DNA from: a virus | Direction: 5' to 3' (one strand) | IMG/VR virus record: IMGVR_UViG_3300013901_000002 | DNA length: 39,090 nucleotides | Shown: one piece after another, positions 2,638-39,090 of the stretch | How the letters are laid out: each line of letters begins with the position of its first letter | Numbering within the stretch: the first letter of the stretch is position 1 | Translations under genes and position numbers: made by a program | The notes under the pieces: generated by a model | Databases searched by the model: none | Told to the model about the DNA's origin: nothing | Seen by the model: only the letters and a program-made list of their open reading frames with translations

Positions 2638-2807
2638 GGGATTTTCTCCTTTCGGCTCCGGCAGTGCCGGGCGGTGATTTTTGGTTTTCAGCGGATCGGG
2701 CTTTTGGCCTTCGGCTCCCTCGCGCGCTCACGCGCACGCCCGTAAGCAGTGACGTGAGATAAGGGTTACAAGAGGGGATAATAGGGGAGATAGATATTAG
2801 GGGGTTT

Positions 2808-2856
2808 GGGGGGAAGAAGGAAGAGGGGGAAGAAGGGGGGAGAGAAGGGGAAGGGA
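2808..2856 (+). repeat. 49-nt all-purine tract with G-runs (G-quadruplex/triplex-prone)
   Basis: Only G/A occurs from 2808 to 2856. G-runs lie at 2808-2813, 2825-2829, 2835-2840, 2847-2850 and 2853-2855. Confidence 0.9.
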
Positions 2857-2918
2857 CAAATCAAAAAGTTTTCGGAAGGTGTTGCCGGAACCTTCCTGAA
2901 AGATTTATATAAGGTATC

Positions 2919-3019
2919 GGGAAGGGTCAGGGAAGGTTCAGGGAAGGTTCGGGGAAGGTTAAGGGAAGGTTCAAGGAAGGTTCGGCAAAGGTTCCCGCCC
3001 AAGGTTCCCTTAGGGTTCG
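2919..3019 (+). repeat. Phased 11-bp direct repeat array GGGAAGGTTCA (7 head-to-tail units plus 2 degenerate copies): iteron-like protein-binding array
   Basis: Units start at 2919, 2930, 2941, 2952, 2963, 2974 and 2985. Degenerate AAGGTTCC and AGGGTTCG copies follow, and an inverted pair of the same core lies at 2874-2881 / 2889-2896. Confidence 0.85.
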
Positions 3020-3026
3020 GGGCCGT

Positions 3027-3266
3027 TTACCAGACCCCGAACTCCCCATTCTTCGCACGAATCAGCAGATTCAGGTTGACACGATAGTGCCATGTTTTCG
3101 AATTAGGTGTCTTTTCGGCACGGCAGAAGGGGCAATCCCCCTCCTGCGCTTTCATCCGGATCTCCAGCGCGGTCACGCCGCTCTGCAGGTAACGGGCTGC
3201 GTCCTCGGGGCGGACGCGGGGCAATGCTCTCAGCTCCTCTTCGGTGAGCACTCTCAGACTGGCCAT
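3027..3266 (-). CDS. Excisionase/MerR-like HTH (HTH_17-like) DNA-binding protein
   Basis: ATG at 3266 follows TAGGAGGT. The pattern LTEEELRALPRVRPEDAARYL....CPF.....WHYRVNLNLLIRAKNG resembles small prophage Xis-like proteins. Confidence 0.55.
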   Translation of the reverse strand: MASLRVLTEEELRALPRVRPEDAARYLQSGVTALEIRMKAQEGDCPFCRAEKTPNSKTWHYRVNLNLLIRAKNGEFGVW

Positions 3267-3665: not shown

Positions 3666-3916
3666 TGTGATTCCTCCTGTTCTTTTTCGGTGGGCTTTTG
3701 GTTGTGGTGCGTCGTCCTCCATGCGGCGTCAAACAGCATTGCGGCGAGCGCGGAGACGGTCTCCAAATCGTCCTGCACGCTGTCGTGCATGATGTGGGTG
3801 ATGACGTTGGCCGGGTCTTTGTTGACAAGCTCGATCAGCTGCCGGATGTGGGCCACAGCGTCAAACGTGGCGCAGCGCAGTGCATCGGAAATGGTGCCTC
3901 TGGGTTTCTGGTCCAT
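3662..3916 (-). CDS. First gene of the early operon, hypothetical (84 aa)
   Basis: ATG at 3916 follows AAAAGGAGGA. It is the first ORF downstream of the early promoter. Confidence 0.65.
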   Translation of the reverse strand: MDQKPRGTISDALRCATFDAVAHIRQLIELVNKDPANVITHIMHDSVQDDLETVSALAAMLFDAAWRTTHHNQKPTEKEQEESQ

Positions 3917-4019
3917 TGCTTGTCCTCCTTTTTCGTGATTAGGTGTTGCTGCGGAGCTTCGCGTCTGCGAGGCCGCGTCTCAAAGTTTCTTTGTGATACT
4001 AATCGGTCTCGTCGTGACT

Positions 4020-4047
4020 ATTATATCACACGTTGTGATTTTGTCAA
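4020..4047 (-). promoter_or_regulatory. Early (lytic) promoter: TTGACA-16 nt-TATAAT with a TGn extension
   Basis: On the minus strand, TTGACA lies at 4047-4042 and TATAAT at 4025-4020. The operator palindrome sits in the spacer. Confidence 0.75.
4025..4039. promoter_or_regulatory. Operator palindrome ATCACAcgtTGTGAT, with further TGTGAT-type half-sites at 3992-3997, 4075-4080 and 4098-4103
   Basis: A perfect 6+3+6 inverted repeat lies between the divergent promoters. The same hexamer recurs over the -35/-10 elements of both promoters. Confidence 0.7.
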
Positions 4048-4067
4048 TGACTTTTTCGAGAAAATTA

Positions 4068-4096
4068 TTGACTTTGTGATTTTTTTGCGGTATTAT
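4068..4096 (+). promoter_or_regulatory. Repressor promoter TTGACT-17 nt-TATTAT
   Basis: TTGACT lies at 4068-4073 and TATTAT at 4091-4096, followed by AAGGAGG and the ATG at 4121. Confidence 0.65.
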
Positions 4097-4120
4097 TGTC
4101 ACACAAAAGGAGGTGACGCA

Positions 4121-4483
4121 ATGGACGAGAGAATCAAAGAACTCCGAAAGTCCATGAAGATGACGCAAGCAGAATTTGGGAAACGCATTGGCGTCAGGCC
4201 GAACACAATTACCAACTACGAAACAGGCCTGCGCACGCCGTCAGATGCTGCGATTTTGGCAATCTGCCGCGAGTTTGGCGTATCGGAGCAGTGGCTGCGG
4301 ACGGGAGAGGGCGAGATGTTCCCGCCGCGGGACGCCCTGCAGGAGCTGACGGAGATGGCCGGGCGGTTTCTGGGCAATCAGCCGACGGAGATCCAGCAGC
4401 GGGCGGCCCGGATGCTGTTTAATCTGCGGCCGGAGGATTGGGAGCTGATCGAGCGGAGAGCGAGGGAATTGCTCGGGGAATAA
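4121..4483 (+). CDS. XRE-family CI-like phage repressor (120 aa, no S24 peptidase domain)
   Basis: The product reads MDERIKELRKSMKMTQAEFGKRIGVRPNTITNYETGLRTPS... It is divergent from the early operon and has a strong RBS. Confidence 0.85.
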   Translation: MDERIKELRKSMKMTQAEFGKRIGVRPNTITNYETGLRTPSDAAILAICREFGVSEQWLRTGEGEMFPPRDALQELTEMAGRFLGNQPTEIQQRAARMLFNLRPEDWELIERRARELLGE

Positions 4484-4857: not shown

Positions 4858-5667
4858 TCAGGCGGCAGAGGCCGAGCCCGGGATGCACTTAACGTGGATA
4901 TCGTAGTAAAAATTGGTATCGAAGTAGTCTACCATGGAGTTAGAGTTGTCATAGTGGTAGGCGCGGATGATGTTATCGACGGTTTTCAGAAGCCGGAGGC
5001 CGTCGGCGTTGAGCCAGTCGGCGGACGTCTCCAGATGGTACTGGTTGACGGAGTTGTAGCAGCGGGTCATGGCGCAATCGTAGGCGTAAGCGGCAGCGGC
5101 GGCGCGGATGCGCTCCTGATCGGCGGCGGGCATATCCCAATAGGTGCCGGAGTGGATGGCCGGGCCGTCTCCGGTGTCGATCCACGGCATACCGGCGGGG
5201 ATCCGGTATGCGGCCACATAGTCGGCGCGAGAGCGGATCAGCGCGGCGGGGGCCTTGATGGTGACGGTCAGGGCCTGGCCGCCGGTATAGGTCTTGCAGG
5301 CCACGGAGACGCCTTTGATGCCCGCACGCTTGATATCGGCGCGGATGGCTGCGGAAAGCTCGGCCCCGTGGAGGTACTGGCCGGACTTGCTGCCGTAGAC
5401 GGCGCCGCCGCCCAGGGATCCACCCGTTGAGACGGTCGGGGCGATTTCGGCGGGCTCATCGGCCGATGAGCCCAGGATGGCGGCGATAATCTCGCGCTCG
5501 GAAGCGTAGCCGTACCAGCATTTTTTGACGGTATGCCAGCGCATTTTGAGCTCCTTCAGTGCGGCGCGGACGGCTGCAGAGGGCTTGCTGTCAAAGGTGA
5601 CTTCTCGGGATGCAAATTCCCGGTTTTCGCGGATCTCGTAGTTGACTTTTCCGGGGTGCTGTGCCAT
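4858..5667 (-). CDS. LPD29-like (polyvalent-protein-associated domain) protein, function unknown
   Basis: ATG at 5667 follows GGAGGT. The N-terminus YEIRENREFASREVTFDSKPSAAVRAALKELKMRWHTVKKCWYGY matches a motif I recall from mobile-element LPD proteins. The family name is not verified. Confidence 0.7.
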   Translation of the reverse strand: MAQHPGKVNYEIRENREFASREVTFDSKPSAAVRAALKELKMRWHTVKKCWYGYASEREIIAAILGSSADEPAEIAPTVSTGGSLGGGAVYGSKSGQYLHGAELSAAIRADIKRAGIKGVSVACKTYTGGQALTVTIKAPAALIRSRADYVAAYRIPAGMPWIDTGDGPAIHSGTYWDMPAADQERIRAAAAAYAYDCAMTRCYNSVNQYHLETSADWLNADGLRLLKTVDNIIRAYHYDNSNSMVDYFDTNFYYDIHVKCIPGSASAA

Positions 5668-5753
5668 AATAGTAATACCTCCATAATGTTTCGTTGTGGG
5701 TGGTGGGCTTCTCGCGTTGTGAATCCGCTAAGATGGGCAACGCGGGAAGTTTT

Positions 5754-5963
5754 TTATTTGCTGCGGATCAAGTTCTTGATCGCTTCGCTTGTCTGGTAGC
5801 CTTTCGCCCGCTCTGCATCGACCATTGCAATGATGTCTGCGTCCTCAACCTTGCGGAGCTTTAACGCATACTGTTGATATGTCTTATCGTTGTAGCGCTT
5901 CTTTACCTCGTTGCTGGTGTGCGTTTTGCGCTTCGGCTTTTCCTGATTTTCTATTGACTTCAC
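5754..5963 (-). CDS. Ribbon-helix-helix (Arc/CopG-like) protein, cassette 1
   Basis: It has a GTG start. The product reads ..KPKRKTHTSNEVKKRYNDKTYQQYALKLRKVEDADIIAMVDAERAKGYQTSEAIKNLIRSK. It is a paralog of 6411-6629 and, more distantly, 7009-7194. Confidence 0.7.
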   Translation of the reverse strand: MKSIENQEKPKRKTHTSNEVKKRYNDKTYQQYALKLRKVEDADIIAMVDAERAKGYQTSEAIKNLIRSK

Positions 5964-6063
5964 CCGCTTTCTTATGCTATACTAAAGGTGGCCGGAGTAA
6001 GGCTTCCGGCTCACCTTTTGCGGTGGAGAGTAGCGGCGCTTTTGCGTGGGCCGCTACTCTTTT

Positions 6064-6180
6064 TTATGCCTTGACCTTGCTGTCCCGGACAATCTGGGCG
6101 GCCGCCTCGGCATCCTTCGCATTGCTTTCAATCAGCTTCGCAATGTTTTCAAGGTACTGGTTAAGCTCTGCGGTGGTCAT
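6064..6180 (-). CDS. 38-aa helical micro-protein, cassette 1
   Basis: The ATG at 6180 has a purine-rich SD-like stretch (AAGGAAGTGAGGA) ending about 10 nt upstream. It translates MTTAELNQYLENIAKLIESNAKDAEAAAQIVRDSKVKA and lies directly downstream of promoter P1. Confidence 0.5.
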   Translation of the reverse strand: MTTAELNQYLENIAKLIESNAKDAEAAAQIVRDSKVKA

Positions 6181-6236
6181 TTCGTCCAAGTCCTCACTTC
6201 CTTTTGTAAAAGCTGGTTGCTTTGCCTTACGCGCTT

Positions 6237-6265
6237 ATCTTAGCACATACGCTTACCCATGTCAA
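6237..6265 (-). promoter_or_regulatory. Cassette 1 promoter TTGACA-17 nt-TGcTAAGAT
   Basis: On the minus strand, TTGACA lies at 6265-6260 and TAAGAT at 6242-6237, with an extended -10 TGn. Confidence 0.7.
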
Positions 6266-6410
6266 GCCCCTTTTTTCACATTTTTTCGGCTGTCCCATCA
6301 GGGTCTTGCAATTTGCAAAAAACTGTGCCATAATAGTAATACCTCCATGATTTTGTGATGATTTGGTGGGGGGCCCGCTCCGTAACGTGCGCCAACACGG
6401 GAGCGGGTTT

Positions 6411-6629
6411 TTATTTATTCAGAGCTTCGCGAATTAACGATTTGACCGCGTCCGAGGTCTGCAGGCCAGAGGCTTTCCGGGCCGCGATGGCTGCGATCAC
6501 GTCGGCGTCGTCGACTTTGCGGAGCGATACAACCATGCGTTCATAGGTCTTCGCGTTATAACGCTGCTTCACGGCCGTGCTTGTATGCGTCTTCCGCTTC
6601 GGCTTTTCGATGTCTTCGATTGCTTTCAC
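6411..6629 (-). CDS. Ribbon-helix-helix (Arc/CopG-like) protein, cassette 2
   Basis: It has a GTG start. The product reads ..KPKRKTHTSTAVKQRYNAKTYERMVVSLRKVDDADVIAAIAARKASGLQTSDAVKSLIREALNK. Confidence 0.7.
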   Translation of the reverse strand: MKAIEDIEKPKRKTHTSTAVKQRYNAKTYERMVVSLRKVDDADVIAAIAARKASGLQTSDAVKSLIREALNK

Positions 6630-6668
6630 TCCCTTTTCGTGGCGGGCGGTTTCCCGCCCGCGCTGTTG

Positions 6669-6803
6669 TTACGCCTGATCGTTCGACGGCTTGTAAGTGT
6701 CGTTCCCGCTCTCGATCCAGAGGATGAAATCATTGATCGCGGTATCATTCCAACCGGCACTTCTCAGCCCGAGGATGACGCGGACCACTTCCGACATTGT
6801 CAT
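6669..6803 (-). CDS. 44-aa micro-protein, cassette 2
   Basis: ATG at 6803 follows AAAGGAGG. It translates MTMSEVVRVILGLRSAGWNDTAINDFILWIESGNDTYKPSNDQA. Confidence 0.55.
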   Translation of the reverse strand: MTMSEVVRVILGLRSAGWNDTAINDFILWIESGNDTYKPSNDQA

Positions 6804-6837
6804 TGCGGCTCGCCTCCTTTCTTTCTGGCGTGGCTTT

Positions 6838-6866
6838 ATGATAGCACATACACCGCAGTATGTCAA
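6838..6866 (-). promoter_or_regulatory. Cassette 2 promoter TTGACA-17 nt-TGcTATCAT
   Basis: On the minus strand, TTGACA lies at 6866-6861 and TATCAT at 6843-6838. Confidence 0.7.
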
Positions 6867-7008
6867 GCCCCTTTTTCAACATTCGTGATGTGATTTTCTT
6901 CAGGATTTCGCGTTGTGGTGGGGCCTCCCGCGCTGAGATCGGCCAAGATTCAGCGGCGCGGGGGCTTTTTATTTATCCAGATGCTAAATTGCCAGCACGG
7001 GGAGTTTT

Positions 7009-7194
7009 TTATTTTTCGTCGCGCTCGATATCTCGCCGGATAAGCTCTTTGATGTACCCGGCTTTGTTCGGGACACTATCCAATTTCTCGATGATCTCCG
7101 CGTCTGACTTGCGCATGAGGGCAAAGCCGTAGCGCTTGACGTTGGCGGCTTGCCATTTGGCGACCGCTTTCGGGCTGTATGCGATTGGTATCAC
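7009..7194 (-). CDS. Ribbon-helix-helix-like protein, cassette 3 (divergent paralog)
   Basis: It has a GTG start. The product reads ..VKRYGFALMRKSDAEIIEKLDSVPNKAGYIKELIRRDIERDEK, with the same strand-helix-helix pattern. Confidence 0.6.
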   Translation of the reverse strand: MIPIAYSPKAVAKWQAANVKRYGFALMRKSDAEIIEKLDSVPNKAGYIKELIRRDIERDEK

Positions 7195-7236
7195 TTCCTT
7201 TCTTACGGGCGGGCGGTTTCCCGCCCGCCCGCCGGG

Positions 7237-7386
7237 TTACTTCTGCGCGAGCCCAGCGATATACGCCTTGATGATCTTTTCGACTTCTTCGGGGGTGTAG
7301 CTCTCCACGTCCTTATCTGCGAAGATGGTCAAAAGATCGTAGGCCATCGCCTTTTTGATGTCCATGCTTTCCTGCGCACTCGGCAC
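7237..7386 (-). CDS. ~49-aa micro-protein, cassette 3 (start uncertain: GTG 7386 or ATG 7365)
   Basis: AAAGGAGG lies 9 nt upstream of the GTG at 7386. The product reads ..MDIKKAMAYDLLTIFADKDVESYTPEEVEKIIKAYIAGLAQK. Confidence 0.5.
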   Translation of the reverse strand: MPSAQESMDIKKAMAYDLLTIFADKDVESYTPEEVEKIIKAYIAGLAQK

Positions 7387-7419
7387 CGTCTTCACCTCCT
7401 TTCGGACTGGCGTGGCCTA

Positions 7420-18295: not shown

Positions 18296-18607
18296 GTGGA
18301 TGCTGCAACAATCGTAGCGCTTGCCGTGCCGGTACTCGGCTTTGCGGGTACTTGCGTGACCGCGTGGGCAACGGTGAAGAAGGCAAGCAAAGAGTCCCAA
18401 AAGGCGCTGACGGCCCTGCAGGAGCAGATGAAACAGCAGCAGGAGCACGATGATGAGCAATACCTCGGCATCCTGCGGCTTACCATTATGTCCCCCGAGA
18501 TGCCGATCTCAGAGCGGCTGATCGCCGGGGCGAAGTACATCAAAAAGGGCGGGAACGGCGACGTAAAGCATTATTACGAACGCCTCGTCAAGGAACATAC
18601 CAAATAG
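18296..18607 (+). CDS. Lysis-cassette membrane protein (N-terminal TM), hypothetical
   Basis: It has a GTG start. The N-terminus reads DAATIVALAVPVLGFAGTCVTAWA, and it sits between the endolysin and holin genes. Confidence 0.5.
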   Translation: MDAATIVALAVPVLGFAGTCVTAWATVKKASKESQKALTALQEQMKQQQEHDDEQYLGILRLTIMSPEMPISERLIAGAKYIKKGGNGDVKHYYERLVKEHTK

Positions 18608-18619
18608 GGGGTACAGAGA

Positions 18620-18898
18620 ATGAAAATGCTGGAAATGATCATCCTGCTTTCCATGGTCATGTGGTACATCATCGACCGCGCAAAGCCCATGTGGGAAAGC
18701 CTGAAGAACGGCAAGTACATCACAATGGCGGTCTCCGCCGTGTTTGCCGGGATGCTGGCGGTCGGGTACCATCTTAATATTATTGCTGCGCTCGGCGTGG
18801 AGAACGGCCCGGAATGGCTCGGCATGGTGCTGACCGCACTGGTGCTGATGGGCGGCAGCTCCGCCGTGTCTGAGCTGATCACGCGCGTGAAGGGCTGA
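18620..18898 (+). CDS. Holin
   Basis: It is 92 aa with multiple TM segments and a GGSSAVSELI tail typical of Firmicutes phage holins. It is adjacent to the endolysin gene. Confidence 0.65.
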   Translation: MKMLEMIILLSMVMWYIIDRAKPMWESLKNGKYITMAVSAVFAGMLAVGYHLNIIAALGVENGPEWLGMVLTALVLMGGSSAVSELITRVKG

Positions 18899-18902
18899 TT
18901 CT

Positions 18903-20306
18903 TTGGGCGCGAGCATCAAGTTCCGCGCCCAACCCCACGCGGTTTCGGTCGATTTAGGCCGCCCGAATTCCAAGCCGCAGCGAGAGTTCTTTGCCTCGCG
19001 CGCCAAGTACACCTGTTACGGCGGCGCGCGAGGCGGCGGCAAAACGTGGTGCGTGCGCGCTAAAGTAGTCGGCGGGGCGCTGGCCTATCCGGGCATCAAA
19101 ATTCTTGTGATACGACGCGCTTACGAGGACTCCAAGCCGACGATCATCGAGCCGATCCGCCAGATGGTCCCGCAGGAGCTGGCGACGTACAACGAGACAC
19201 AGCACCAGATGTTCTTTGCCAACGGCTCGCAGATCAAGTTCGGCAATATGCCGGGTTACGGCGCGGCCGTCGCCGGTAAATATCAGGGTCAGGAATACGA
19301 TTGGATTTTCATGGACGAGGCGACACAATTCACGGAATCCGAATTCCGCGGCATTGCGGCCTGCCTCCGCGGCGTGAATAAAATCCCGAAGCGCTTTTAC
19401 CTGACCTGTAACCCCGGCGGCATCGGGCACGCGTGGGTCAAGCGCCTGTTCATTGAGCGGCGTTTCAAGGACGGGGAGAATCCCCGCGATTATAAATTCA
19501 TCAAGGCCACGGTCGAAGACAACGTCGACCTGATGGAGACGCAGCCGGACTATCTGGCGGCTCTGGAGCTGCTCCCCGAAGATATTCGCCGCGCTCATCG
19601 TTACGGCGACTGGGACGCGCTGGCCGGAACGTACTTCTCCGAGTTCCGCGAGGCGCTGCACGTCTGCGCGCCGTTTGAAATCCCGGCTGCATGGCCGAAG
19701 TACCGCGCATTTGACTACGGCCTTGATATGTTCGCGTGTCTGTGGGTAGCCGTGGATGAGACAGGCCGGTGCTATGTTTATCGAGAATTCGCAGAGTCCG
19801 ATCTTGTGGTGTCGGCTGCCGCAGAAGCGATGCAGGCGTGTACTCCCATGGGCGAGAAGGTCGAGTATACGATTGCCCCGCCGGACATGTGGAACCGTCA
19901 GAAGGACACTGGCAAGAACATGGCAGAGCTTTATATGCAGGCCGGGATCGGGCTTGTGCGGGCGTCCAACAGCCGCGTGCAGGGCTGGATGGCGCTGAAG
20001 GAACTGCTCAAACTGCGGCCGGACGGAAAGCCGGGCTTGATCATTTTTGAAAACTGTAAGGGGCTGCGGGAATTCCTGCCGCTGCTCCAGCACGACGAAG
20101 CGAACCCGTCTGACGTCTCCAAGCAGCCGCACGACATTACGCACATCCCCGACGCCCTGCGTTACTTTGCGGTTATGCGCACGCTGCCCGCAAAGGTGCT
20201 GCGCGCGGAGCTTCCGGGCGACGATCTGCCGGAGCAGCATGTGACGGCATACGATGCCGCAATGTGCGGCGGGCTGCCGACGGACAGCTATATCAACTAT
20301 CGATAG
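18903..20306 (+). CDS. terL: Terminase large subunit
   Basis: A Walker A-like YGGARGGGKTW, a Walker B-like DWIFMDEA and C-terminal nuclease-type motifs are present. The TTG start is uncertain. Confidence 0.85.
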   Translation: MGASIKFRAQPHAVSVDLGRPNSKPQREFFASRAKYTCYGGARGGGKTWCVRAKVVGGALAYPGIKILVIRRAYEDSKPTIIEPIRQMVPQELATYNETQHQMFFANGSQIKFGNMPGYGAAVAGKYQGQEYDWIFMDEATQFTESEFRGIAACLRGVNKIPKRFYLTCNPGGIGHAWVKRLFIERRFKDGENPRDYKFIKATVEDNVDLMETQPDYLAALELLPEDIRRAHRYGDWDALAGTYFSEFREALHVCAPFEIPAAWPKYRAFDYGLDMFACLWVAVDETGRCYVYREFAESDLVVSAAAEAMQACTPMGEKVEYTIAPPDMWNRQKDTGKNMAELYMQAGIGLVRASNSRVQGWMALKELLKLRPDGKPGLIIFENCKGLREFLPLLQHDEANPSDVSKQPHDITHIPDALRYFAVMRTLPAKVLRAELPGDDLPEQHVTAYDAAMCGGLPTDSYINYR

Positions 20307-30749: not shown

Positions 30750-30750
30750 A

Positions 30751-31004
30751 ACCGTTTCGGGGTTGCTACGCGGTTGCTACGTGACCGCGTGGGAACCCCG
30801 AAAAACGTGCGTATATGGCGGTTTTTAGGGGGGTTATGAAAATTGTTGAAATATCACGATTCCCATATTTGACCTTTTACAATCGTGAAAAACTTAGAAT
30901 TTGAATATTTTGCACTAATTCCCCGCAAAACAGTTAGCTAAATGTTAGCTCCCTCTTTGCGTATCGGGCGCGTTGCTACGTGGTTGCTACGCGGTTGCTA
31001 CGGA
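30751..31004. promoter_or_regulatory. attP region: five GGTTGCTACG arm-type repeats flanking an AT-rich core
   Basis: Repeats start at 30761, 30772, 30971 (CGTTGCTACG), 30982 and 30993, all direct and 11-bp phased. The AT-rich segment at about 30830-30950 contains the inverted CACGATT/AATCGTG pair. The region abuts the int stop codon. Confidence 0.65.
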
Positions 31005-32069
31005 TCAATCTACGAGGTCTATGGCGGCGCGGAGCGTCTCGACATCTTGATTGATATAAATGTCACTGGTCGTCTTGTAATTCGTGTGTCCGATCATTCG
31101 CTTGATATCCTCAGGGCGCGCACCGGCGGCGGCAAGCCGCGTGGCGAAGGTATGCCGGGCACAGTGCGGCGTGAGATCGTCCGGGAGTCCGAGTGCTTCC
31201 CGCGCTGGCCCCCATACCTGCAGCCGGAACAATTGCGCCGTGTATCGTTTCCCTTTTTTGTTGCGGTACAACGGCCCCGGCCCGGCGGCGGCCCAGCGGT
31301 CGACGATTGGGATGATATCCGGGTGAACGGGGACGATGCGGCCTTTGCCTGCGGCCGTCTTGATGCCGCCGCGGATGATGTGCTGTACCGGGTCGTAATC
31401 CTCGACGTTGAGCGCGCAGAAGGCTGTGACGCGGAACCCAAGATAACAAAACGCGAGCATTGCGTCTCCGCCGGGGACTTCGGCCCAATGCTCTTTTAGC
31501 GTCCGGAATTCCTCATTCGTGAAAGCCCGGTTTTTGGATTGGTCGTCTTTGACGTGAACGCTGATGAACTGCATATTGTCTCGCTCGACGTAGTTGTTCT
31601 CATACGCGCACTTAAACGTTGCACTTAAAGCAAACCGAGACAGGTTTGCAGTATGCTTTGCGTACTGCGCGTACAGGTCGGCGACGATCTCGCGAAGCTC
31701 TCCGGCGGACACGTCGCGGATCATACGCCTCACAAATGTGCCGTCCTGCAGCTTTTTGACGCGATTCCACGCTGTTTCATATGAGCGCAGAGTGCCCTTG
31801 TTTTCGATGGTCAATTCTGCCGTTTTGTACCAATATTCGTACACCTGCTGCACAGTGACCGGGGCGGCGGTGACGGGATTCTTTGCCCATCTGCGCAGGG
31901 CCTCGCGGGCTTCGGCGCGGGTATTGTAGCTTCCGAGATTGTTATAGACCCGGCGGGGCTTGCCGGACTCGTTTAGGATATAGGTCGCCGGAGCATAGGC
32001 GACGTAGGCGGTACGATGGGCATAGCGGCGGCGGACGATGGAACCGCTGCCGTTTTCTCTTTTTGCCAT
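31005..32069 (-). CDS. int: Tyrosine recombinase / phage integrase
   Basis: It is 354 aa. The C-terminal catalytic region reads ..HCARHTFATRLAAAGARPEDIKRMIGHTNYKTTSDIYIN, and an N-terminal SAM-like domain is present. Confidence 0.9.
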   Translation of the reverse strand: MAKRENGSGSIVRRRYAHRTAYVAYAPATYILNESGKPRRVYNNLGSYNTRAEAREALRRWAKNPVTAAPVTVQQVYEYWYKTAELTIENKGTLRSYETAWNRVKKLQDGTFVRRMIRDVSAGELREIVADLYAQYAKHTANLSRFALSATFKCAYENNYVERDNMQFISVHVKDDQSKNRAFTNEEFRTLKEHWAEVPGGDAMLAFCYLGFRVTAFCALNVEDYDPVQHIIRGGIKTAAGKGRIVPVHPDIIPIVDRWAAAGPGPLYRNKKGKRYTAQLFRLQVWGPAREALGLPDDLTPHCARHTFATRLAAAGARPEDIKRMIGHTNYKTTSDIYINQDVETLRAAIDLVD

Positions 32070-32179: not shown

Positions 32180-32425
32180 GTGGTCGAGGTGTTGATCTGG
32201 CAGGCCCGCATGGCGCGGGGGCTGTCGCTGCGGGAACTGGAGCGGCGCAGCGGGGTATCCAGGGCGGCGCTGCAGCGCATCGAATCCGGTGGGGTCAGTC
32301 CGACGCTGGCGCAGCTGGACTTGATCGCGGGCGCTCTTGATTGCAGCATATCACAACTTTACCGGGAGTCCAATAGGTGTACAAAAAATGTCCCGATATC
32401 GGGACATTTTTGGAGAAAACGTTGA
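32180..32425 (+). CDS. Small XRE-type HTH regulator divergent from int (start uncertain)
   Basis: The product contains ARMARGLSLRELERRSGVSRAALQRIESGGVSPTLAQLDLIAGAL. GTG/TTG start options lie at 32180-32192, and there is no strong RBS. Confidence 0.6.
   Translation: MVEVLIWQARMARGLSLRELERRSGVSRAALQRIESGGVSPTLAQLDLIAGALDCSISQLYRESNRCTKNVPISGHFWRKR
32384..32411. terminator. Perfect 28-nt palindrome AAAAATGTCCCGAT/ATCGGGACATTTTT (bidirectional terminator)
   Basis: Read directly. It has an A-tract upstream and a T-tract downstream. Confidence 0.75.
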
Positions 32426-32451
32426 CGGGAGCCGCTCCAACGTGGCATAAT
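32422..32451 (+). promoter_or_regulatory. Promoter TTGACG-18 nt-TGgCATAAT
   Basis: TTGACG lies at 32422-32427 and CATAAT at 32446-32451, with an extended -10. Confidence 0.55.
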
Positions 32452-32479
32452 CAGAACGCAGGGGGAAACGGAGGACGGT

Positions 32480-32581
32480 ATGCAATACATTCCCGCGATT
32501 CAGAAGCTACTAAAAGGAGCCACGACCGAACAGCTCGCAATGATCTACCATTTTATCCGCGGCCTGCTGGCCGCAGCCTGA
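32480..32581 (+). CDS. 33-aa micro-protein with its own promoter and terminator
   Basis: ACGGAGGA lies upstream of the ATG at 32480. It translates MQYIPAIQKLLKGATTEQLAMIYHFIRGLLAAA. Confidence 0.45.
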   Translation: MQYIPAIQKLLKGATTEQLAMIYHFIRGLLAAA

Positions 32582-32590
32582 TACCCTGCA

Positions 32591-32620
32591 AAAAGCCCGC
32601 CGAGCACCGGCGGGCTTTTG
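32591..32620. terminator. Bidirectional intrinsic terminator (end of the early operon and of the micro-ORF unit)
   Basis: The stem is GCCCGCCG/CGGCGGGC, flanked by AAAA and TTTT. Confidence 0.8.
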
Positions 32621-33034
32621 TTATCCGATCATACCGGGGTCAGGCTCCAGCTCCACGACAACGCGCGGCTCAGCGGAATAGCGCTTGACGACACGGCCGT
32701 CCGTGACCTGCGCGTCGTCGGCGTAAGCGAGGCCGTTGAGCGCGTCGCAGATGATCTTGCCGATGTTGTCCCAGTCCGGCTTCTTTGTCGGCAGGAGCTT
32801 CCCTGCCAGTTTGCGGAGGACAGTCTGGCGGGAATCGCTCTTGTTGCAGGGGTGGTAAGCGTAGATGCGGACGGCAACGGGGCCGTCCAGCATGGCGCAG
32901 CCGCTCTGTGCCCACGCGGTGCGGACGCTCTCCTCGTAGTCGCGGGTCTTCTGCGGCGTGAATGCGTGCCCGGTACGGGTAAAGCGCGGGCGCGCCTTGC
33001 CTTCCGGCGCGCCCAGAATCACGAAACGCTGCAT
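32621..33034 (-). CDS. rusA: RusA-family Holliday junction resolvase
   Basis: The product contains GKARPRFTRTG..., ...KKPDWDNIGKIICDALNGLAYADDAQV. Confidence 0.85.
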   Translation of the reverse strand: MQRFVILGAPEGKARPRFTRTGHAFTPQKTRDYEESVRTAWAQSGCAMLDGPVAVRIYAYHPCNKSDSRQTVLRKLAGKLLPTKKPDWDNIGKIICDALNGLAYADDAQVTDGRVVKRYSAEPRVVVELEPDPGMIG

Positions 33035-34083: not shown

Positions 34084-34781
34084 GCGGCATCCTCCTTGAG
34101 CATGGCCTCAATGGCCGCCTGCGCAAGCGGGGAGATGGACGCGCTGTCGTGGGTTTGGTACTGCGCATTCCGGGCGACGGCCTTGTCTGTGGCGCGCCGC
34201 GGCCCCCACTTTTCGCGGGCGGCGCGGCGGACGGTCAGATTCCAGTCCTTCCACTTGTTCTTGTTGTAGGTCGACTGCGCCATTTCGTCGACAAGGCGAA
34301 TCCAGTACGTCGCTTCCGCCTCTCCAAGATCGCGGCAGAGCCGCTCATATTCTGCATCTGTCAGCTTGACCCAGCCATAGGGTGCGCGGGGTTTCTTCGG
34401 CGGCGCAGGGGGGCTTTTCGGCGCAGTGTGAGCCTCTTCTGCGGGTGTGGGTTCCTTCGGCGGTTCGACCTTCAGCGGCTCCTTCTGCGGTGCGGGCTCT
34501 TCCGGGGCCGGTTTCTGCGCGGCTGCTTCCTTCGGGGCTTCCTTCGGGGCTTCCTGCTGCCGCTTTGCGTGCTTTTTCCCTCCGGCTGACATCTTCGCGG
34601 CGATGTCCAGAGACGGCCGCACGAGCATGAACAGGGCAGACGCCATCGGCGACAGGTCGACCGGTTCGACGTCATCCAGAGCATAGGCGCACATTGCCAT
34701 AATGGACTCGACCTGCACGGTCTTCGGCAGGGGAAAGATCGCCTCCCAGAACGTGCGGGAAAACGTAAATTGGTCTCTCAT
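34077..34781 (-). CDS. Replisome-organizer/DnaD-like protein with a PAPxE-rich linker
   Basis: The ATG at 34781 forms an ATGA overlap. The N-terminus FTFSRTFWEAIFPLP.. and the C-terminus VKLTDAEYERLCRDLGE..YNKNKWKDWNLTVRRAAREKW resemble phage DnaD-type proteins. Confidence 0.5.
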   Translation of the reverse strand: MRDQFTFSRTFWEAIFPLPKTVQVESIMAMCAYALDDVEPVDLSPMASALFMLVRPSLDIAAKMSAGGKKHAKRQQEAPKEAPKEAAAQKPAPEEPAPQKEPLKVEPPKEPTPAEEAHTAPKSPPAPPKKPRAPYGWVKLTDAEYERLCRDLGEAEATYWIRLVDEMAQSTYNKNKWKDWNLTVRRAAREKWGPRRATDKAVARNAQYQTHDSASISPLAQAAIEAMLKEDAAC

Positions 34782-38695: not shown

Positions 38696-39090
38696 CTTTC
38701 CACCTCCACGAGCTTGCCGCCCTTGCAGGTGTACCATGTGCCCGGCTTGATTGTCTCTCCGTCGACGATTGCGGCCGCGACGCTCAAAATATCGCCGCAG
38801 CCTGCCCGCTCGACAGCGAACAGCGCGCAGCCGAGCGCGCCCATAACCTTGCCAGCAAACCCGCTTGCCAAGGCTGCGCCCCGATAGCCCGTGGCGGAGG
38901 CCGCGCCCCGATAGCCCGTGGCGGAGGCTGCGCCCTGATTGCCCGTGGCGGAGGCCGCGCCCTGCTCGCCCGTGGCGGAGGCTGCGCCCTGATTGCCCGT
39001 GGCGGAGGCCGCGCCCCGATAGCCCGTGGCGGAGGCTGCGCCCTGATTGCCCGTGGCGGAGGCTGCGCCCAGCTCGCCCGTGGCGGAGGC
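38692..39090 (-). CDS. C-terminal part of the wrap-around repeat protein (see 1-452)
   Basis: The repeats continue as GAASATG(NQ/YR/EQ), followed by ..[60 protein letters not shown] and TGA at 38692-38694. Confidence 0.8.
   Translation of the reverse strand, partial: ASATGELGAASATGNQGAASATGYRGAASATGNQGAASATGEQGAASATGNQGAASATGYRGAASATGYRGAALASGFAGKVMGALGCALFAVERAGCGDILSVAAAIVDGETIKPGTWYTCKGGKLVEVER
38871..39090. repeat. 27-bp tandem coding repeat, window-end portion (about 8 units; about 10.5 units in the joined gene)
   Basis: Units were read directly. The variable 6 nt encode NQ, YR, EQ or EL, and the GCG/GCA alanine codon alternates between units. Confidence 0.9.

Follow-up and report, generated by a model that had tools for sequence, protein, structure and literature searches.

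A phased 11-bp repeat array beside a C-rich, G-poor RNA segment in the early operon of an uncultured gut phage: a candidate checkpoint between immediate-early and delayed-early genes

Our analysis identifies a conserved, helically phased array of 11-bp repeats beside a long pyrimidine tract in the 390-nt gap of the early leftward operon of a temperate phage (IMG/VR record IMGVR_UViG_3300013901_000002; the whole stretch of 39,090 nt that was analyzed is called the window here). According to the best reading, to which we assign a probability of roughly one in three (about 0.36), the array is an operator for the 79-aa protein encoded directly upstream and forms, together with a rut-like tract, a checkpoint between immediate-early and delayed-early transcription. 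In this scenario the array would act as a cooperative operator, presenting a further G-N-AAGGTT site with every helical turn to a small DNA-binding protein that oligomerizes. The likeliest binder would be the 79-aa protein itself, a predicted winged helix, which would coat and wrap some 100-130 bp, as P2 Cox, 186 Apl or PrtN do on their repeats in direct orientation. The array is located directly upstream of an RNA segment of about 100 nt, C-rich and G-poor, which resembles a strong Rho-loading site. Array and tract together would then control the passage from the four small immediate-early genes to the delayed-early recombination and replication genes, with binding of the protein either blocking or permitting read-through. 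Overall, such an element would be rather commonplace among phages, apart from two details that are unusual.

The window represents a temperate phage genome (39 kb, 62% GC) of an uncultured phage from the human gut. Both contig ends fall within one and the same 27-bp collagen-like repeat, which identifies the genome as circular and broken at that repeat; no DNA relative was matched among deposited phages. The plus strand carries the late genes (head, portal, endolysin, large terminase and a 2338-aa protein). A CI-like gene (~4120-4483, plus strand) points away from the early leftward promoter at 4047-4020 (minus strand), a TTGACA-16-TGnTATAAT element that matches the consensus at 12/12 positions in the promoter scan; the same scan places the switch promoters at 4020-4096. 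The early operon comprises four tiny genes (84, 82/101, 48 and 79 aa), then the 390-nt gap, and past the gap the genes for a 106-aa protein, an HTH protein and an HNH-like protein, before it continues across the contig ends with DUF4406, methylase, DUF1351, Erf, MBL nuclease, DUF6291 “organizer”, SSB, RusA and tyrosine integrase. The gene of the 106-aa protein (2317-2637, hydrophobic C-terminus) is the first one past the gap and opens the long delayed-early operon. Like the 79-aa gene on the other side of the gap it lies on the minus strand, and the gap between the two is the sole long untranslated stretch in the early leftward operon and its largest non-coding region. The promoter scan detected no sigma-70-like sense promoter between the early promoter at 4047 and position 2317, and the delayed-early genes therefore rely on read-through across the gap, which speaks for a checkpoint at this place. 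A strong hairpin over the stop codon of the 79-aa gene (3015-3042, minus strand; -23.2 kcal/mol, z -3.7; inverted pair I19) has no U-run behind it, and Rfam returned no known RNA family.

Seven head-to-tail 11-bp units with the consensus sGrAAGGTTmn occupy positions 2919-2995 (plus strand). They were recovered by TRF (2919-2994, period 11, 6.9 copies, score 103) and as family D1 of the repeat search, where the 11-bp spacing occurs six consecutive times; on the sense (minus) strand of the operon the array reads TGAACCTTCCC. Two degenerate units are attached at 2996-3019 (plus strand), with cores at 3001 (a 13-bp step) and at 3012. On the other side of the array, an inverted pair formed by GGAAGGT (2874-2880) and ACCTTCC (2890-2896; pair I4) consists of a flank unit and a cassette-boundary unit. 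The RNA hairpin that this pair could form at 2874-2896 is weak (-11.2 kcal/mol, z -1.2) and no better than that of shuffled sequence, and an intrinsic terminator at this position was rejected on these grounds. An earlier note on this DNA had reported the inverted pair, the seven units, the degenerate units up to 3019 and a purine run at 2808-2856, and all of them were found again at just these positions; none of them is expected by chance, from which they are far removed. In a search of the whole window the exact GGAAGGTT is confined to 2889-2982, and motif sites in the genome are restricted to 2874-3019.

The array was compared in about 35 related metagenomic contigs. The core G-N-AAGGTT is nearly invariant in them and the period is always 11, with varying spacer bases and 7-12 copies; a check of relatives for conservation and copy number, as the earlier note had advised, thus shows the array conserved at its 11-bp period. 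The sequence logo built from 89 in-register units of 10 lineages gives 1.7-2.0 bits for G2 and for AAGGTT (positions 4-9), and 0.3-0.6 bits for positions 1, 3, 10 and 11. An invariant core at an exact 11-bp step, combined with variable spacers and copy numbers, is the signature of a short protein recognition site and not of a coding or RNA element, and it fits the protein sites that the checkpoint scenario calls for. The helical phasing itself is conserved, but the idea that the period places every site on one DNA face has to be modified: against the 10.5 bp of relaxed B-DNA, a period of 11.0 bp produces a drift of ~17 degrees per unit. The sites will hence follow a slow spiral, which suits wrapped or underwound DNA, not a flat face.

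The hexamer as such carries no information on relationship. AAGGTT arrays at 11-bp spacing were found in 28 unrelated viral contigs (L017, L022, L031 and 25 more), and these contigs have no proteins in common with the window's phage. A control hexamer of the same composition, TTGGAA, yielded 41 such arrays. Arrays with 11-bp spacing are accordingly common in phage DNA in general, a hexamer in common is meaningless, and a widespread “AAGGTT iteron family” was dismissed as coincidence.

Comparison of the relatives revealed an inversion within the gap. The exact 79-aa sequence and a 99% variant occur on dozens of metagenome contigs of ~39 kb, and in 20 contigs the gap is almost the same as in the window; one of these 20 lacks two units (22 bp), several carry converted unit pairs, and in one, L037, a portion of the pyrimidine tract is rewritten. 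In the clade of the window, a cassette at 2882-2988 is inverted relative to the flanking genes, as seen from the inverted pairs I2 and I5 and from the contig comparison. The imperfect inverted repeats TTGCCGGAACCTTCC (2882-2896) and GGAAGGTTCGGCAA (2975-2988) delimit the cassette, and the breakpoints sit in the unit itself, which is present there in inverted copies (TTGCCGAACCTT and AAGGTTCGGCAA). Besides the array it contains an AT-rich block, TGAAAGATTTATATAAGGTATC (2897-2918), of which TTTATATAAGGTATC is kept in most lineages; it is absent between the unit sets of L134, the most divergent member, in which motif copies lie on either side of the 79-aa gene. The window shares its orientation with the 20 near-identical contigs, which come from different samples, and with L135 (94% identity). 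The opposite orientation of the cassette (TTTATATAAGGTATC plus array) is found in all of the more distant lineages, about nine in number: L001, L002/L139, L052, L053, L054, L055-58, L134, L140 and L141, with 75-94% protein identity.

The inversion also accounts for the two units that had been taken as degenerate copies of the array. They match two to three opposite-orientation units located just past the stop codon in relatives with an uninverted cassette (L001, L002, L052-L055). By this comparison they derive from ancestral opposite-orientation units, which the flip put into register with the array. Because the cassette is inverted between clades, it acts as DNA and not as RNA or protein. Length steps of 11 and 22 bp together with the inversion exclude translation as well as RNA pairing between array and tract as the constraint on the gap. 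The view of the gap as non-coding yet organized is upheld by the same observations, which rule out translation of the repeat-derived open reading frames 2766-3002 (minus strand) and 2806-3087 (plus strand). Pairing of the GGAAGG repeats with the CCUUCC tract in an RNA duplex was rejected, too, since the inversion destroys the complementarity in the window's successful clade. From its sequence features, we read the array as a row of probable protein sites that function at the level of DNA.

An inverted cassette could also be an invertible switch, which flips in vivo and redirects a promoter-like element and the array toward or away from the delayed-early genes. Relatives whose flanking proteins are 85-94% identical do show both orientations, inverted repeats of 14-15 bp contain the breakpoints, and the cassette includes a weak promoter-like TTGCCG-17/18-TATATA. 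However, the latter (TTGCCG at 2882-2887 plus the AT-rich block) is a weak promoter-like site aimed into the array, which the promoter scan did not flag; L052 and L053 have not kept its -35 element, and L134 lacks the AT block. Orientation is fixed per clade in the ~35 contigs, and no flipped contig of the window's clade was seen among the assemblies, which show the majority state only and could miss rare flipping. As orientation tracks the clade in this way, the inversion looks like a fixed evolutionary event and not like an active switch. There is also no invertase gene nearby, the sole recombinase being the integrase at 31 kb, and we regard a switch as improbable, slightly more so than the structural and packaging roles discussed below. 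The alternative cassette junction would read, e.g., CCTTTGCCG(G)AACCTTCCTGAAAGATTTATAT.

The gene directly upstream of the gap (3027-3266, minus strand) encodes the candidate binder of the array. Its 79-aa product is modeled by AlphaFold2 with a pLDDT of 84 and the topology helix-helix-helix, beta-hairpin, helix, i.e. as a winged helix. The best fold matches among predicted viral structures are labeled PrtN (E 4.6e-5, TM 0.75), “transcription regulator” and Cox, and a PrtN/Cox-like winged helix next to the array is what the checkpoint scenario would lead one to expect. Against this scenario it must be noted that the model has no significant match among PDB folds (best E at least 0.55, to MarR- and ArsR-type winged helices) and that the sequence belongs to no family in searches of Pfam, PHROG and PDB. 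Of the remote homologues, 3/29 give weak HTH_17 matches and 1/29 matches Pfam PyocinActivator, at an E of 0.15. The family is narrow: its 22 clusters share 75% identity or more. Within it, the residues of the helix-turn-helix (recognition helix included) and of the wing do not vary, nor does the AAGGTT core; this invariance and the motif copies on either side of the gene in L134 speak for the checkpoint. Within the phage collection the sole protein match is to Flavonifractor phage Cormatin (32% identity). The remote homologues (32-66% identity, Cormatin included) have neither a phased array nor an AAGGTT cluster within 2.5-3 kb, which limits the link between gene and array to adjacency within one narrow family and weakens the case for the checkpoint. 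The protein had been described as an “Xis-like HTH”. The predicted winged-helix fold agrees with this description, but the likeness exists at the fold level only and the repeats are missing from attP. The attP region (30750-31005) has its own 11-bp arm-type repeats, GGTTGCTACGY, two on one side and three on the other; no AAGGTT site was found there, and an excisionase site was rejected for this reason.

Known regulators provide close parallels for such an array. Apl of phage 186 binds seven 6-bp operators arranged as direct repeats 10-11 bp apart and needs at least three adjacent sites (PMC7498355), and Cox of phage P2 binds at least six cox-boxes, 10-11 bp apart and in either orientation, with the DNA wrapped around a filament (PMC3936717). 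In both cases binding is cooperative and bends or wraps the DNA (PMC7498355, PMC3936717). The present system is similar in having short cores as direct repeats every 10-11 bp, in at least six copies with some in opposite orientation, and a small (here predicted) winged-helix protein encoded early in the lytic operon; with its 7-12 units at 11 bp the array contains the three or more direct repeats one helical turn apart that such binding requires. By analogy, the 79-aa protein might bind here in a comparable way. Unlike in P2 and 186, the 79-aa protein is no sequence member of those families, the array is longer (9-12 units), and the sites lie 1 kb inside the operon and not between lytic and lysogenic promoters, with none at attP; positions so different from those of the Cox and Apl sites, away from both the lysis-lysogeny switch and attP, count against the checkpoint.

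The P box of the Pseudomonas pyocin genes consists of short tandem repeats. As an activator, PrtN attaches to P boxes, which are regulatory elements of promoter regions (PMC4684702), and its name is the label of the best structural matches of the 79-aa model. The resemblance is restricted, however, by the PyocinActivator match in just one of the 29 family members, and no activator-dependent promoter was found downstream of the array.

The second component of the proposed checkpoint is a 115-nt block at 2747-2861 (minus strand), whose sense RNA is C-rich and G-poor and which we propose as a rut-like segment. Its 95-nt core (2766-2860) contains 47 C and 2 G in the sense RNA, CCCCTATTATCCCC-type motifs are located inside the block, and the most extreme C>G window of 80 nt in the genome is found here (C minus G = 44; maximum of the other strand 21). 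The block includes the 49-nt pure purine run at 2808-2856 (plus strand), which consists of pyrimidines throughout when read on the sense strand. No other purine/pyrimidine run in the window is as long (the next one has 19 nt; chance expectation ~2e-10); a second short AT-rich block lies at 2858-2873. The earlier note had emphasized the G-runs of the purine strand as a potential quadruplex or triplex. A canonical G4 motif is indeed present at 2825-2855 (regex: four G-runs, loops of at most 7 nt) and may form such a structure, but the tract is better read on the opposite strand, as a C-rich, G-poor untranslated RNA segment. Between clades the block is 85-100% identical (77-84% against the variant L037), compared to 79-91% in the 79-aa gene and 52-83% in the array, and it is conserved no less than the genes on either side. 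It is never inverted, the C-rich strand is the sense strand in all lineages, and the C/T-rich, G-poor composition is retained where the sequence diverges (L037, L135). An extreme, untranslated C>G segment that always stays on the sense strand and keeps its composition supports the checkpoint scenario.

Known rut sites have a length of 70-80 nt or more, are rich in C and poor in G, and carry no ribosomes (PMC6407284). Judged by this published composition and length, the tract looks like a Rho-loading (rut) site, at which Rho, if the host has it, may terminate early transcripts. Rho-dependent attenuation at lambda tR1 and tL1 offers a similar picture, in which the first early genes are followed by untranslated RNA that is C-rich and G-poor, and in which read-through is needed (PMC6407284); unlike in lambda, no nut-like site or antiterminator was found here. 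The tract also differs from known rut sites in being far more extreme and purer in pyrimidine. A host search in a genome collection gave a single weak match, to an Actinomycetota MAG, and the terminase search gave no helpful clue to the host. In most lineages not only G but also A is avoided by the sense strand of the tract. Avoidance of A is not needed by a rut site, and the composition thus exceeds the rut requirement, a point against the checkpoint. This pyrimidine purity beyond the need of Rho leaves room for a role in DNA structure.

Accordingly, the gap has also been considered as a DNA-structure element (a quadruplex, i-motif or triplex tract) or as a packaging signal, i.e. a recognition array for the small terminase. 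The former is favored by the G4 motif, by a 13-nt mirror repeat with the arms GGGGGGAAGAAGG and GGAAGAAGGGGGG (identified by eye) and by the shortage of A just described. In L037, however, part of the pyrimidine tract is rewritten and broken by A and G, with loss of the run and of the mirror symmetry, yet L037 is a full-length, well-covered genome. A packaging signal would be compatible with the lack of any recognizable small terminase gene beside the large terminase gene, but the array is 16 kb away from the terminase gene. Both roles appear unlikely.

The main rival to the checkpoint is an origin of replication, in which the repeats would be iterons for the 79-aa protein or for the DUF6291 organizer, which would bind them with its N-terminal domain. 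Melting would occur at the AT-rich blocks, and an antisense purine-rich transcript may form a stable hybrid with the C-rich strand and prime synthesis. Such a transcript could start at a weak antisense promoter-like site, GTGAGA-17-GATAAT (2754-2782, plus strand; a consensus match only, 9/12), which recurs at corresponding positions of the window, L137 and L138 and would drive purine-rich RNA over the tract, toward the array. The arrangement resembles iteron origins (lambda ori, SaPI ori, the pMV158 bind locus) and R-loop origins (ColE1, T4) in its direct repeats by AT-rich DNA and its strand-asymmetric tract, with possible transcription through it. In support of an origin, direct and inverted repeats surround AT-rich blocks beside a strongly strand-asymmetric tract, function tolerates inversion, the antisense promoter-like site is conserved, the early operon has no larger non-coding region, no other conserved candidate origin was found, and the unrelated contig L022 has a similar array straight after a helicase-like gene.

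Several findings stand against it. Unlike at known iteron and R-loop origins, no initiator gene adjoins the repeats, nor does a helicase gene, the neighboring gene has no initiator domain, and the short cores recur at each helical turn. Cores of 6-8 bp at each turn are found more typically in regulator or adaptor arrays, whereas iterons have 17-22 bp. A distance of ~7.2 kb separates the array from the module of organizer, Erf and SSB, DnaA boxes are lacking, the GC skew has no turning point at the gap, and the AT-rich block spans just ~22 bp and does not occur between the unit sets of L134. In Cormatin, the only cultured phage that encodes a remote (32%) homologue, the tandem repeats are located inside the initiator gene. 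The only other candidate origin, in the organizer gene of the present phage, was rejected: the 12-bp repeats there (34525-34555) encode a linker and are not conserved in relatives. The evidence found favors an origin in no specific way, and we consider it a possible but doubtful explanation, ranking behind the checkpoint. A special form of it, a two-part origin new for gut Clostridia-type phages, would combine a primer made from the antisense RNA (2754-2782), held in an unusually stable hybrid by the C-rich strand, with a winged-helix filament on the iterons that opens or positions the DNA. It is considerably less probable, though still ahead of the structural and packaging roles; if true, the cassette inversion would show that the iterons are free to face either way with respect to the primer.

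As for segregation, the scenario of a centromere-like partition site of the ParR/parC or TubR/tubC type, which the earlier note had entertained, must be judged very unlikely, the least probable of the readings considered here. Repeats of 11 bp beside the gene of a small DNA-binding protein recall R1 parC and tubC, and as in R1, where a small adaptor binds, two sets of repeats are arranged around a promoter-like, AT-rich core. In contrast to R1, there is no ParM or other motor, and the neighboring protein is a predicted winged helix and not a ribbon-helix-helix (RHH) protein; the three RHH paralogs assumed before were not confirmed by Pfam or PHROGs. Searches of Pfam and PHROGs found no actin-like, tubulin-like or Walker ATPase partner (ParM, TubZ and ParA without match), and the only Walker A motif in the genome belongs to the large terminase, in line with the previous statement that neither a classical initiator nor a partition ATPase is encoded. 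Moreover, the phage has a tyrosine integrase as well as arm repeats at its attP, and a related phage was found integrated inside a 422-kb contig.

Near-identical 39-kb genomes were assembled in dozens of human-gut samples, and the phage is thus common there; none of its early regulators falls into a described family. The gap defines a candidate protein-DNA pair, made up of an uncharacterized winged-helix family of ~75 aa and the G-N-AAGGTT array, and also supplies a very clean candidate Rho-loading tract. The natural inversion represents a ready-made experiment, according to which the array functions in both orientations. The gain is modest because such arrays are familiar in phage biology. 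If the checkpoint reading is true, lambda-style temporal control via termination would be extended to an uncultured phage whose host is a high-GC gut bacterium.

The two ends of the contig carry an identical 27-bp (9-codon) repeat, at 1-109 and 38871-39090, which belongs to a minus-strand collagen-like gene whose version in relatives encodes DUF7666 plus Collagen. Since both ends share this repeat and nearly all related 39-kb contigs break inside it, the genome is circularly complete except for the repeat number of the collagen-like gene. Its late-gene order is unusual. At 18296-20306 the large terminase gene lies immediately downstream of two holin-like genes and an endolysin gene, the head and portal genes are found 7-9 kb upstream of it, and no small terminase gene was recognisable.

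A leftward block of small genes on the minus strand (4858-7395) converges on the CI-like gene and includes two paralogues (5754-5963 and 6411-6629). The assignment of RHH proteins in the earlier note was not confirmed, because none of the small genes in this block found a match in the Pfam search and most remained without a match in PHROG.

In ERZ26858510 NODE_573 a stretch of ~45 nt within the pyrimidine tract, equivalent to 2800-2845 of the window, is replaced by TTATTTCGCATCTTCATTCCTCCCCCCACCCCCCCTCATCTC. This change is local, with 99-100% identity to the window outside the rewritten segment, and it preserves the C-rich, G-poor composition of the tract. The GGnTTCCTTCGG repeats at 34389-34555 lie within the DUF6291 organizer gene and code for a KEAP/PE-rich linker; the relatives L137 and L138 carry a different low-complexity sequence in place of this linker.

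In the low-GC viral contig IMGVR_UViG_3300017971_007923, unrelated to the window, TTCAACCTTCC units are grouped into several sets around AT-rich DNA at 630-1100, immediately after a helicase-like gene; the units occur in both orientations and are accompanied by GGGGGGAATAATA motifs. This arrangement resembles a SaPI-style origin. The likeness of its units to the 11-bp units of the window is probably a coincidence, given the result for the control hexamer TTGGAA (41 arrays with 11-bp spacing versus 28 for AAGGTT). Flavonifractor phage Cormatin (ON453905) contains a 24-bp repeat in 3.1 copies (3916-3990) within its annotated replication initiation gene, and these repeats are probably the origin iterons of that phage.

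The window holds another group of direct repeats with an 11-bp unit, GGTTGCTACGY. They occupy the interval that separates the end of the 2338-aa gene from the stop codon of the integrase gene, with two copies (30761-30783) on one side and three (30972-31003) on the other side of an AT-rich region of ~190 bp. These are probably the integrase arm-type sites of attP. Adjacent to the integrase, the plus strand carries at 32190-32640 a small XRE-type HTH ORF followed by a strong promoter-like site (TTGACG-17-TGGCATAAT), a 33-aa ORF and, last, a clean intrinsic terminator; together they may form a cassette that is expressed in lysogeny.
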